From Escherichia coli (GTDB lineage Bacteria > Pseudomonadota > Gammaproteobacteria > Enterobacterales > Enterobacteriaceae), in the NCBI RefSeq assembly GCF_013122565.1, contig NZ_CP053258.1: DNA of 64,000 nucleotides; one strand, given 5' to 3'. Under the pieces are notes generated by a model. That model was not told the origin of the DNA. It saw nothing but the letters and a program-made list of their open reading frames with translations, and ran no database searches. Numbering within the stretch: position 1 is the first letter of the stretch; every line of letters begins with the position of its first letter. Shown here in pieces: positions 5,098-43,043 of this stretch. Position numbers and translations under genes: made by a program.

Positions 5098-5898
<801 letters not shown>

Positions 5899-5920
5899 TT
5901 AGTGACAAAGTGCATATGTC

Positions 5921-6030
<110 letters not shown>

Positions 6031-6051
6031 ACTTGTCATGTATCCTTTCAA

Positions 6052-6807
6052 TTAACTCATCGACAGCAGTTGGTTGGCACGGCCTGCGTTATCATCGACG
6101 CTGCTGATCACCTTCATCTGCATTTCAAAACGCCGCGCGCTGGCAATCATGTCGCTCATTGCCGCAACGGCATTAACGTTACTGCCTTCCAGAACCCCCG
6201 ACATCACACGCAAGGTTGGATCTGCCTGCAGTACCGGTCCACGCGTGGCCTGGGTTTCTGCGCTTAAACGAAAAATGCCGTCGTCACCGCGCTGCACTTC
6301 GCTGCCCGTGGCTTTCACCAGCTTCAGACGCCCCACTGGCGCAACCGTATTTGCCGGATCGCCCGGATTCAGCGCCGAGATTGTGCCATCGGCAGCAATA
6401 GTGATTTCCGCCCCTTCCGGCACAGCAATTGGCCCAGCCTCGCCTATCACCGGATGCCCCTGAATTGTCAGTTGCCCGGTGGGATCAACCTGAATGCTGC
6501 CATTACGCGTATACCCTTCGCTGCCGTCAGCGGTCTGCACGGCCAGCCAGCCATCCTGCTGCAACGCGACGTCCAGCGGGCGCGAGGTGTAATCCATTTT
6601 TCCGGGCGTCATATCTGCGCCCGGCGTTGACGCCGTGACCAACGTGCGCGTGGGCAGAGAAAGCCCTTCCACTGGCACCGCGCGTAAAGCATTCAACTGC
6701 GCGCGAAAACCGGGCGTTGAGGCATTGGCCAGATTACTGGCGGTTACCGCCTGTTGATTCAGTGTCTGGCTGGCTGCTCCCATCGCGGTATAAATTGCGT
6801 GATCCAT
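6052..6807 (-). CDS. flgF: Flagellar proximal rod protein FlgF (251 aa)
   Basis: Translation MDHAIYTAMGAASQTLNQQAVTASNLANASTPGFRAQLNALRAVPV...; synteny. Confidence 0.95.
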   Translation of the reverse strand: MDHAIYTAMGAASQTLNQQAVTASNLANASTPGFRAQLNALRAVPVEGLSLPTRTLVTASTPGADMTPGKMDYTSRPLDVALQQDGWLAVQTADGSEGYTRNGSIQVDPTGQLTIQGHPVIGEAGPIAVPEGAEITIAADGTISALNPGDPANTVAPVGRLKLVKATGSEVQRGDDGIFRLSAETQATRGPVLQADPTLRVMSGVLEGSNVNAVAAMSDMIASARRFEMQMKVISSVDDNAGRANQLLSMS

Positions 6808-17947: not shown

Positions 17948-17998
17948 TTATCCTTTGTGTCCGGCAAAAACATCCCTTCAGCCGGAGCATAGAGATTA

Positions 17999-22708: not shown

Positions 22709-22720
22709 GAGAGAAATGTT

Positions 22721-22741
22721 GCCGGATGGCACGCATCCGGC
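22721..22741. terminator. Bidirectional hairpin terminator between convergent yceI and trhO
   Basis: GCCGGATG-GCACG-CATCCGGC hairpin. Confidence 0.65.
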
Positions 22742-22749
22742 AATGAGAT

Positions 22750-24954: not shown

Positions 24955-24985
24955 ATGCCGGATGCTTCAGAATGGCATCCGGCAT
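24955..24985 (+). terminator. Hairpin immediately downstream of lpxL (possible terminator/stabilizer, no U-tract)
   Basis: ATGCCGGATGC-TTCAGAATG-GCATCCGGCAT inverted repeat 8 nt after lpxL stop. Confidence 0.35.
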
Positions 24986-26345: not shown

Positions 26346-26427
26346 TTTTTCGCCTTTCATACTTGCAAAAGCGGAGAATCAGCTATCCTTTTCCCTGAAA
26401 CCTCATCAACTCAAAGGGAGAATCGTG

Positions 26428-26802
26428 ATGACCATGTACGCAACGCTTGAAGAAGCCATTGACGCTGCACGCGAAGAATTTCTTGCAGACAACCCCGGCA
26501 TCGACGCCGAAGATGCGAATGTGCAACAGTTCAATGCCCAAAAATACGTTTTGCAAGACGGCGACATCATGTGGCAAGTTGAGTTTTTTGCCGACGAAGG
26601 GGAAGAAGGTGAATGTTTACCTATGCTTAGCGGTGAAGCCGCGCAAAGTGTTTTTGATGGCGACTATGATGAGATAGAGATCCGCCAGGAGTGGCAGGAA
26701 GAGAATACATTACATGAATGGGACGAGGGGGAATTTCAGCTTGAGCCACCGCTGGATACTGAGGAAGGACGGGCAGCAGCTGATGAGTGGGATGAACGTT
26801 AA
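26428..26802 (+). CDS. msyB: Acidic protein MsyB (124 aa)
   Basis: Translation MTMYATLEEAIDAAREEFLADNPGIDAEDANVQQFNAQKYVLQDGDIMWQVEFFADEGEEGE... Confidence 0.92.
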   Translation: MTMYATLEEAIDAAREEFLADNPGIDAEDANVQQFNAQKYVLQDGDIMWQVEFFADEGEEGECLPMLSGEAAQSVFDGDYDEIEIRQEWQEENTLHEWDEGEFQLEPPLDTEEGRAAADEWDER

Positions 26803-27030
26803 TCACTCATACGGGCCATGATGAATGTCGATCGGCAGCAGTAAAGTATCAAAAACCAGGGAGAATGGCAGATCAAGGATTGTGACATAACGCCAGGCGG
26901 AGTCACGCACATCCCATTGCACACCGGGATAATATTGGTTGCCATGCCCCTGCCCCGGTATAGTGCGGCTAATGATGCTGCCACAGCCACTCAGCAAGGT
27001 CACCATGATGCTCACCACAATTAAACGCAT
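26803..27030 (-). CDS. yceK: Lipoprotein YceK (75 aa)
   Basis: Translation MRLIVVSIMVTLLSGCGSIISRTIPGQGHGNQYYPGVQWDVRDSAWRYVTILDLPFSLVFDTLLLPIDIHHGPYE (lipobox LSGC). Confidence 0.88.
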   Translation of the reverse strand: MRLIVVSIMVTLLSGCGSIISRTIPGQGHGNQYYPGVQWDVRDSAWRYVTILDLPFSLVFDTLLLPIDIHHGPYE

Positions 27031-27046
27031 TTGATACCTCTTCCGT

Positions 27047-27080
27047 AAAAAAATACCGGCATAACGCCGGTATTTTTATT
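27047..27080. terminator. Bidirectional hairpin terminator (A-tract / stem / T-tract) downstream of opgGH operon
   Basis: AAAAAAATACCGGC-ATAAC-GCCGGTATTTTTATT. Confidence 0.7.
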
Positions 27081-27094
27081 GGCTCGTTGTTTTT

Positions 27095-27195
27095 GCCGGA
27101 TGTGGCGTGAACACCTTATCCGACCTACAAAATCTTGCAAAATCAATAAATTGCAGGACCGATGTAGGCCTGATAAGCGTAGCGCATCAGGCAAC
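27095..27195. repeat. BIME: two REP units in inverted orientation between opgH and yceK
   Basis: GCCGGATGTGGCGTGAACACCTTATCCGACCTACA and GATGTAGGCCTGATAAGCGTAGCGCATCAGGCAA. Confidence 0.8.
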
Positions 27196-27202
27196 TACGT
27201 TT

Positions 27203-31385
<4,183 letters not shown>

Positions 31386-36658: not shown

Positions 36659-37410
36659 GTTGTCACCCTGGACCTGGTCGTACATTTAAGAAATTAAATC
36701 ATTTCAACTTGGTTGTTAACGCAACCTGTATTTTGTTAACGCTGCGTTACGATGGAAAGTATGTCTGCGGAAATATTTTTAATAACTCACCCGCGCGTTG
36801 TATTTTTCTTTTTTTGTTCATACCAAAGTATTAAAAGCCACGTAAATACGCTGTTATCTACGCAAAAAATATTTTGTTTTCTTTTAAATCTCCGTTTCCG
36901 CTATCAAAAATCACCAGACAGTCATTCTTCTTGCCCGTCGCTGATTGCTGCGATATGTCTTGCGCACAAGCCGTGACAAACCTCGTCTTTTTGCAGTAAA
37001 AAATTGTCCACGGAGGTGTGGAGAAAAAACAACAACTTTTTACATGACGAAAGGACTACACCGAAATATTTTTTATATGCATTATTAGTAAGTTATCACC
37101 ATTTGTATGATTTTTTAAAATTGTGCAATAAAAACCAAATGTACAACTTTTCTATCATTTCTAAACTTAATAAAACCTTAAGGTTAACATTTTAATATAA
37201 CGAGTTACATTTAGTTACATGTTTAACACTTGATTTAAGATTTGTAATGGCTAGATTGAAATCAGATGTAATCCATTAGTTTTATATTTTACCCATTTAG
37301 GGCTGATTTATTACTACACACAGCAGTGCAACATCTGTCAGTACTTCTGGTGCTTCTATTTTAGAGGCAGCTGTCAGGTGTGCGATCAATAAAAAAAGCG
37401 GGGTTTCATC
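36659..37410. promoter_or_regulatory. csgBAC / csgDEFG divergent intergenic regulatory region (about 750 bp, AT-rich)
   Basis: Long AT-rich gap between divergent csgB and csgD start codons; by established knowledge of the csg locus this carries the sigmaS-dependent csgD and csgB promoters and multiple regulator sites; individual sites not resolved by eye. Confidence 0.7.
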
Positions 37411-42955: not shown

Positions 42956-43043
42956 GGTGAGGTGTCCGAGTGGCTGAAGGAGCACGCCTGGAAAGTGTGT
43001 ATACGGCAACGTATCGGGGGTTCGAATCCCCCCCTCACCGCCA
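42956..43043 (+). tRNA. serX: tRNA-Ser (anticodon GGA), serX/serW type
   Basis: 88-nt sequence GGTGAGGTGTCCGAGTGGCTGAAGGAGCACGCCTGGAAAGTGTGTATACGGCAACGTATCGGGGGTTCGAATCCCCCCCTCACCGCCA with long variable arm, anticodon loop CUGGAAA, 3' CCA; divergent from ghrA as in K-12. Confidence 0.95.

Follow-up and report, generated by a model that had tools for sequence, protein, structure and literature searches.

The window analysed here, a stretch of 64,000 nucleotides, is a segment of an Escherichia coli-type chromosome whose orientation is reversed in comparison with K-12. On its minus strand, opgH (mdoH; positions 27203–29776) is followed by yceK (26803–27030), and both genes are supported by the ORF list, by the annotation beneath the BLAST matches, where opgH appears as mdoH, and by the alignment with K-12. 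The ORF list places the opgH stop codon TAA at 27203–27205 of the minus strand. The yceK ribosome-binding site GGAAGAGG was located on the same strand at 27043–27036 using the ORF, the annotation and the alignment, and the yceK ATG occupies 27030–27028. On the plus strand, msyB (26425–26802) converges on yceK. The spacer between opgH and yceK is 172 nt long in the window and, read along the opgH strand, consists of the TAA, 10 nt, a Z1-type REP unit, a 35-nt linker, an inverted Y-type REP unit and 17 nt, followed by a hairpin, a U7 tract ending at 27047, GGAAGAGG and the yceK start codon at 27030. The preliminary description had placed a terminator followed by a BIME of two inverted REP units downstream of opgH, at 27047–27195. 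Its coordinates are right to within a few bases and all of the parts are present, but their order has to be turned around: on the minus strand, from which opgH is read, the terminator follows the BIME.

The locus itself is widespread in the species. An 801-nt query found matches in 5425 of 5426 complete E. coli genomes (BLAST), with mdoH, yceK and msyB annotated beneath them. The best identity of this query among the complete E. coli genomes was only 98.9%, and the comparison of the window with strain EC1515 gave 98.7% identity across 26 kb with zero gaps; from these identities, the lineage of the window seems not to be closely represented in the E. coli genome collection. The opgH–yceK region aligns with K-12 at 98% identity, and K-12 carries the same element at this site, with its hairpin at about 1113546–1113562. 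A promoter scan reported no promoter-like sites in 26500–27700.

The two REP units were identified by a consensus search, a check that the preliminary description had proposed. The Z1-type unit GCCTGATGCGCTACGCTTATCAGGCCTAC lies on the minus strand at 27164–27192, shows 0 mismatches to the 29-nt Z1 consensus and begins 10 nt past the opgH stop codon; as RNA, its hairpin folds at -13.9 kcal/mol. The Y-type unit GCCGGATGTGGCGTGAACACCTTATCCGACCTAC lies on the plus strand at 27095–27128, inverted relative to Z1, and differs from the 34-nt Y consensus at 3 positions. Two of these three substitutions fall in stems, and each creates a G–U pair in the opgH-sense RNA, where the Y hairpin folds at -15.3 kcal/mol in comparison with -9.8 kcal/mol in the antisense RNA. 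The consensus strings for Y and Z1 follow the Gilson/Bachellier papers, and further copies found independently, both within the window and in K-12, support them. Shuffled windows gave no match in any of 100 replicates, in the Y search and the Z1 search alike, and the claim of two REP units in opposite orientation is thus upheld. The foot tetranucleotides on the plus strand are CTAC (27125–27128) for Y and GTAG (27164–27167) for Z1; the Y unit of K-12 has the foot GTGG instead. The spacer contains a single copy of the pair, one Y and one Z1, in an extragenic position between the opgH stop and the yceK start. The RNA of the whole spacer folds at -64.3 kcal/mol (z -5.4). Elsewhere in the window, hairpins resembling REP stems occur at 22720–22743 and 24956–24984, neither of them a full REP.

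Between the two units lies a 35-nt L linker (27129–27163, with no strand assigned) that contains a small palindrome (TTGCAA...TTGCAG) and is common to the copies at flgF–flgG and at yaaX–yaaA of K-12, and also to the Rfam model RF02751; the K-12 linker sequence on the opgH strand is CAATTTATTGATT. A pattern search found at the centre of the linker, at 27141–27153 of the plus strand, an IHF core AATCAATAAATTG that matches WATCAANNNNTTR exactly. By itself the pattern is not significant, with 8 occurrences in the window in comparison with 3.5 expected, and it is therefore the position of the core, not the mere pattern, that counts: the predicted core sits where the BIME-1 family expects one (PMC3333891). 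On duplex DNA, the linker of the BIME-1 is an expected site for IHF. This core, which defines the subtype, is absent from the preliminary description.

By its published definition, a BIME-1 is built of z1 and y units that occur as one copy and are held apart by a long, well-conserved L linker, often with an IHF site (PMC3333891). The type is also known as RIP (repetitive IHF-binding palindromic element) and RIB (reiterative ihf BIME). The opgH–yceK element shares with it the inverted Z1 and Y units in single copy, the conserved L linker with the IHF core and the extragenic position at the 3' end of a transcription unit; we saw no structural difference, the Y unit carrying 3 substitutions. As every feature of the published definition is found here, the element is, as judged by its sequence, a textbook BIME-1 (RIP/RIB), and the pair together with its conserved long linker bears out the identification as a BIME made in the preliminary description.

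The element belongs to a repeat family dispersed over the genome. The number of places matched by a 331-nt query around the opgH–yceK element has a median of 17 per E. coli genome, and the element aligns with a second one between flgF and flgG at 80% identity over 108 nt (E 1e-23). Within the first 50 kb of K-12, BLAST revealed two solitary Y units and, in the spacer of yaaX and yaaA, a third BIME-1-like copy. A REP has been annotated between these two genes in K-12; the copy of the RefSeq record NC_000913.3 used here has no repeat_region or REP features at either locus or in the first 50 kb.

The second element lies inside the flgB-J operon, between flgF (6052–6807) and flgG (5098–5880), both on the minus strand. 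The preliminary description had noted a REP cluster there, at 5921–6030, and a cluster is indeed present, although one of its units is degenerate. The element as a whole spans 5926–6023 and is nearly identical in K-12. Its Y-type REP (5926–5959, plus strand) has 1 mismatch to the 34-nt consensus and is identical in K-12, and its L linker (5960–5995, no strand assigned) aligns with that of the opgH copy. The linker contains an IHF-like core AATCGATAAATTG at 5972–5984 that has one mismatch and so fails the exact WATCAANNNNTTR pattern. The remaining unit, GCCTGATGCGCAAGTTTATCGGGTCTAT (5996–6023, minus strand), is collinear with the Z1 of the opgH copy and begins 28 nt past the flgF stop codon, yet only its 11-nt head matches Z1 in a blastn-short scan for degenerate REPs, and the search for consensus matches within 3 mismatches returned none for it. 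We consider a decayed BIME-1 the best description of this element, as far as its sequence goes. The RNA of the spacer is predicted to form one long imperfect hairpin of -62.7 kcal/mol (z -5.7). The BIME-1 allele at flgF–flgG is present in 3476 of the 5426 E. coli genomes, and the remaining ~36% match in the flanks only. One genome of this second group was inspected, O111:H8 strain 9662; its flg spacer has 137 nt and contains a GC-rich palindrome, which we take to be BoxC-like.

Downstream of the BIME-1 on the opgH strand, the hairpin at 27047–27077 (minus strand) was recognised as a putative intrinsic terminator from a perfect 12-bp inverted repeat, from folding and from conservation. Its stem is formed by AAAAAUACCGGC (27077–27066) and GCCGGUAUUUUU (27060–27049), closed by the 5-nt loop GUUAU, and the U7 tract lies at 27053–27047; the arms AAAAATACCGGC and GCCGGTATTTTT (27049–27060 and 27066–27077) are each 12 nt long and 100% complementary. 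A core stem of 7 bp (UACCGGC/GCCGGUA) is lengthened to 12 bp by A–U pairs. The predicted folding energy is -18.2 kcal/mol for the minus-strand RNA and -17.9 kcal/mol for the plus-strand RNA, with z of about -4.5 to -4.8, and not one of 200 shuffled sequences reached this stability. Read on the plus strand, the hairpin precedes UUUUUAUU (27073–27080), a U-rich tail arising from the A-tract, so that the structure of A-tract, stem and T-tract reported earlier holds. The minus-strand site went undetected in a consensus terminator scan, which gave only an odd plus-strand stem; we attribute this miss to the stem extension absorbing the U-tract.

To place the hairpin in a wider context, we collected 80 Enterobacteriaceae loci, one genome per species, by scanning with the C terminus of OpgH. 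A simple hairpin finder detected a homologous AAAATACCGGC...GCCGGTATTTTTTT hairpin in 73 of them. In the aligned hairpins, 91.4% of the cells form standard pairs, compared with 42–55% when the partners were slid, and the A-tract pairs are kept in 47–57 of 60 distinct sequences. Compensatory changes are found in both directions, from A–U to G–C in 11 sequences and from G–C to A–U in 5, and four pairs have changed on both sides. The fold energies, the 73 loci out of 80 and the compensatory changes all support the terminator of the preliminary description, and across these sequences the hairpin 3' of opgH behaves as a conserved intrinsic terminator. With rho-independent bidirectional terminators it shares the GC-rich stem, the 5-nt loop, the U7 tract, the A-tract upstream and the compensatory changes; it differs from the usual ones in standing only 18 nt upstream of the yceK start codon. 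Given this distance, yceK would have to use either read-through or an undetected promoter.

The comparison across genera also gives the relative age of the two parts. The opgH–yceK spacer is 147–172 nt long in six Escherichia representatives and mostly 56–100 nt elsewhere, and the hairpin lies 8–20 nt from the opgH stop in most genera but 100–125 nt from it in Escherichia. Among the species loci, the BIME was found only in Escherichia. As the spacer is longer in Escherichia and the hairpin stands near the stop codon elsewhere, the BIME would have been inserted later: the comparison indicates that the terminator hairpin is ancestral and the BIME-1 a later, Escherichia-specific insertion between the stop codon and the terminator. 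Within E. coli, at least 80% of the region is covered in 5362 of the 5426 complete genomes. Known from the slot alone, single REP-like units occupy the same position in Salmonella, Enterobacter hormaechei, Superficieibacter and Leclercia, and the slot of Buttiauxella noackiae holds a different, BIME-like inverted pair. Other genera have the terminator alone, and the BIME may thus add little.

Such an arrangement suggests several functions. Transcripts of opgGH would include the hairpins of Z1, linker and Y and finish at the terminator. Its stem, together with the hairpins of the two REPs, could block 3'-to-5' exonucleases and thereby stabilise the opgGH mRNA, the BIME and the terminator may jointly lower read-through into yceK, and the linker would bind IHF on duplex DNA. 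According to the account of Liang 2015 given in PMC12306157, REPs at most 15 nt from a stop codon stall ribosomes and lower upstream translation. At 10 nt from the stop, the Z1 unit of opgH falls in this class, and its stem could stall terminating ribosomes and lower opgH translation; the flg copy, 28 nt from the flgF stop, falls outside it. What the sequences show directly is the identity and layout of the parts, their predicted folds, conservation, covariation and distribution; that transcription ends at the opgH–yceK hairpin, that the mRNA is stabilised, that IHF binds and that translation is affected, we infer only by analogy with the published family.

Published data on other REPs indicate which direction an effect on expression could take. 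REP325 has a dual role as stabiliser and attenuator, and in 146 REP-containing tandem gene pairs the ratio of upstream to downstream expression is raised (bioRxiv 10.64898/2026.03.23.713779). The supplement of the same study flags flgF as REP-adjacent and lists baseMean values of 12031 for opgH and 275 for yceK, and of 45079 for flgF and 30173 for flgG (bioRxiv 10.64898/2026.03.23.713779). Combined with the gene lengths, these give rough per-nucleotide ratios of ~3.9-fold for opgH/yceK and ~1.5-fold for flgF/flgG, which are based on normalised mean counts over mixed samples with strandedness unchecked, antisense transcription overlapping yceK. Like REP325 in the yjdMN operon and the malE–malF REP, the flgF–flgG element lies between tandem genes, where upstream-biased expression is expected; it differs from them in having one unit decayed and in being absent from ~36% of E. 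coli genomes. At most, it may tilt expression modestly toward the upstream genes. The suggestion in the preliminary description that the flg cluster affects the mRNA stability of distal genes points the wrong way, as in published REP biology the proximal message is stabilised and the distal one attenuated. A literature search found no experiment on the opgH–yceK locus, nor REP or terminator work on mdoH, opgH, yceK, msyB or flgF, and the genes go unmentioned in the RepRanger supplements.

Our main reading, to which we give a probability of roughly 85%, is that the opgH 3'-UTR is a composite in which an Escherichia-specific BIME-1 has been inserted before an ancestral Enterobacteriaceae terminator, the functions proposed above included. 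In kind, the finding is already known: catalogues of REP/BIME elements in E. coli go back decades, and K-12 has this copy at the same site.

The strongest alternative holds that the BIME is a selfish, decaying remnant, once mobilised by a RAYT/TnpA-REP transposase, that it came to lie in a tolerant slot without serving either opgH or yceK, and that function is confined to the ancestral terminator. TnpA-REP has REPs and BIMEs as its substrates (PMC3333891). Over about 20 genera it is only the terminator that is conserved, and the slot before it holds differing REP-like inserts or none. Signs of decay are found within Escherichia, the element being scrambled in E. albertii, lacking Z1 in a record labelled E. 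coli E69 and having a shortened linker in SCPM-O-B-8794, and the flgF–flgG copy is half decayed, with other sequence in its place in ~36% of genomes. In an alignment of 11 non-independent sequences, eight at the E. coli level and three from other Escherichia species, no part of the spacer varies as much among the E. coli strains as the Y unit, where the window and EC1515 differ at 7 positions in 29 nt; this hypervariability and the decayed or truncated forms (E. albertii and two divergent Escherichia) argue against strong constraint on the BIME as a whole. On the other hand, the element is near-fixed in E. coli (the 5362 genomes above), and the Z1 unit is, like the terminator, almost invariant across the 11 sequences. 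The IHF core is retained in the eight E. coli-level sequences and has a mismatch in two of the three other species; in the O157 and Combat11I9 alleles, its variation is limited to the NNNN bases. Genome-wide data furthermore tie REPs to upstream-biased expression (bioRxiv 10.64898/2026.03.23.713779). We therefore regard a mere remnant as unlikely, though it retains an appreciable share of the probability.

The substitutions in the Y stem bear on the same question. They are mostly transitions that lead to G–U pairs in the opgH-sense RNA, and in one lineage a compensatory change from U–A to C–G is seen. This pattern is suggestive of constraint on the transcribed RNA and would thus speak against a selfish remnant, within a small, non-independent sample and with a mutational strand bias as the alternative. 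The G–U bias was considered as proof of RNA-level selection and dropped, since the 11 sequences are non-independent and a transcription-linked C-to-T bias of the coding strand would mimic it.

A further possibility, which we find very improbable, is that the linker encodes a plus-strand sRNA of the ES036/CssrF family. The Rfam model RF02751 of this family matches 27129–27171 on the plus strand with 47.9 bits, above the gathering score of 37.6. However, the model, only 43 nt long, in effect covers the L linker and the first letters of Z1, GTAGGCCT; any BIME-1 should therefore score, and the flgF–flgG copy falls below the threshold. The sRNA to which the family owes its name, cssrF, has a locus of its own in Shigella flexneri, flanked by dacB and yhbZ, and a length of ~290 nt (PMC3071730), and the promoter scan of the opgH–yceK region gave no promoter-like site in 26500–27700. 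As the 43-nt model coincides with the repeated linker and the cssrF locus is at dacB/yhbZ, we read the match as a cross-hit to the repeat, providing no evidence of an sRNA gene. Another repeat-derived model, RF02564 (naRNA4; CssrE), fits the Y hairpin with 35 and 41.8 bits, yet below its threshold of 59.5; membership in naRNA4 was rejected, the score being under the gathering threshold and the match covering the Y hairpin only.

Less probable again is that the element is a BIME-2, or an atypical BIME, with a strong DNA gyrase site. It does contain a Y REP, and within BIME-2 gyrase cleaves this unit preferentially, but it is for BIME-2 that gyrase enrichment has been reported (PMC6379681). In that type, Z2 and Y units are joined by a short S linker and repeated in tandem, and we rejected it here: the consensus search found no Z2 unit anywhere in the window, the linker is of the long L type, and the element is a single copy with no tandem array. 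Finally, chance matches or ordinary gene-specific hairpins are an explanation to which we give practically no weight, since it has in its favour only that short GC palindromes are common and is refuted by consensus matches of 29–34 nt with 0 expected by chance, by the median of 17 places per genome and by the paralogues that the window and the initial 50 kb of K-12 contain, including the 80% identical second element.

The composite reading leaves room for a second role of the terminator. In 79 of the 80 loci, yceK and msyB are convergent, and their stop codons are 0–7 nt apart in nearly all, the largest gap being 33 nt. As the stop codons abut, no terminator fits between the two genes, and the opgH hairpin is the first terminator-like structure that msyB transcripts reach. 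Given this abutment, and with an A-tract and a T-tract flanking it on opposite sides, the hairpin probably works in both directions and also terminates the plus-strand transcripts of mdtG–msyB. We put forward three linked ideas more tentatively, and as a set at somewhat worse than even odds: that the terminator is bidirectional, that yceK lies inside an antisense 3'-UTR overlap and that the slot before the terminator is a landing pad for REPs.

For annotation, the opgH–yceK and flgF–flgG spacers should be marked as BIME-1 repeats and not as new regulatory RNAs; beyond this, the importance of the finding is slight. The opgH locus gives a clear view of how a mobile REP pair has entered the space separating a stop codon from a terminator of far greater age, and the dimorphism of the flgF–flgG spacer could serve as a natural test of the effect of an intra-operon BIME on the expression ratios of flagellar rod genes. 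If the terminator is bidirectional, it would close the opgGH transcripts on one strand and those of mdtG–msyB on the other, and the small lipoprotein gene yceK would lie wholly within the antisense 3'-UTR overlap and be expressible only by terminator read-through. If the slot is a landing pad, the 8–20 nt between the stop codon and the terminator would recurrently take up REP-type elements, and each insertion could retune the read-through into yceK.

The spacer between flgF and flgG appears to occur in two alternative forms within E. coli. The form found in the window (positions 5881–6051, 171 nt) carries a BIME-1 remnant and was present in 3,476 of the 5,426 complete E. coli genomes, whereas in approximately 36% of these genomes the flgF–flgG match was confined to the flanks. 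One such flank-only genome was inspected, that of the O111:H8 strain 9662: its spacer (locus L085, positions 380–516) is 137 nt long and contains the palindrome CCCTCGCCCCTTTGGGGAGAGGGTTAGGGTGAGGGG, which we take to be BoxC-like.

Over most of window positions 1–32756, the nearest of the 5,426 genomes showed 98.7–98.9% identity, and the comparison with the E. coli strain EC1515 revealed zero indels in 26 kb. By contrast, a 331-nt flgF–flgG piece was 100% identical between the window and EC1515. The lineage from which the window derives does not seem to be represented among these E. coli genomes and may belong to Shigella. In the same pair, the Y REP unit downstream of opgH (27095–27128) is a local hotspot of polymorphism, with 7 of the 90 differences found in 8 kb clustering within 29 nt in this unit; the substitutions there are mostly G–U-compatible in the opgH-sense RNA. 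Other genera have REP-like inserts of their own in this same slot, after the stop codon of opgH and ahead of the conserved terminator, as seen in the opgH–yceK spacers of loci L037, L041, L031, L043, L078, and L079: a single REP-like unit in Salmonella, Enterobacter hormaechei, Leclercia, and Superficieibacter, and an inverted pair in Buttiauxella noackiae.

Positions 27129–27171 score above the gathering score of the Rfam family RF02751 (ES036/CssrF sRNA), the 43-nt model of which corresponds to the L linker of BIME-1. cssrF proper maps to dacB/yhbZ (PMC3071730). RF02751 probably cross-matches BIME-1 copies generally. Rfam hits that exceeded the gathering score were also obtained for the ES056 sRNA at 37264–37355 (119.7 bits), the PyrC leader at 17949–17998 (68.7 bits), and a long-arm tRNA of 85 nt at 42956–43040. 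Two short hairpins elsewhere in the window, TGCCGGATG-GCAC-GCATCCGGCA at 22720–22743 and TGCCGGATGC-n9-GCATCCGGCA at 24956–24984, resemble the outer REP stem; at both, the remainder of the REP unit is missing and there is no obvious T-tract.

The stop codons of yceK on the minus strand and msyB on the plus strand adjoin at 26802/26803, and the two genes are convergent in 79 of the 80 Enterobacteriaceae species loci (L004–L083), with a stop-codon gap of 0–7 nt in nearly all convergent loci and 33 nt at maximum. The earliest terminator-like structure downstream of msyB is the hairpin at 27049–27077. Because the stop codons of these convergent genes adjoin, the yceK and msyB transcripts must overlap.
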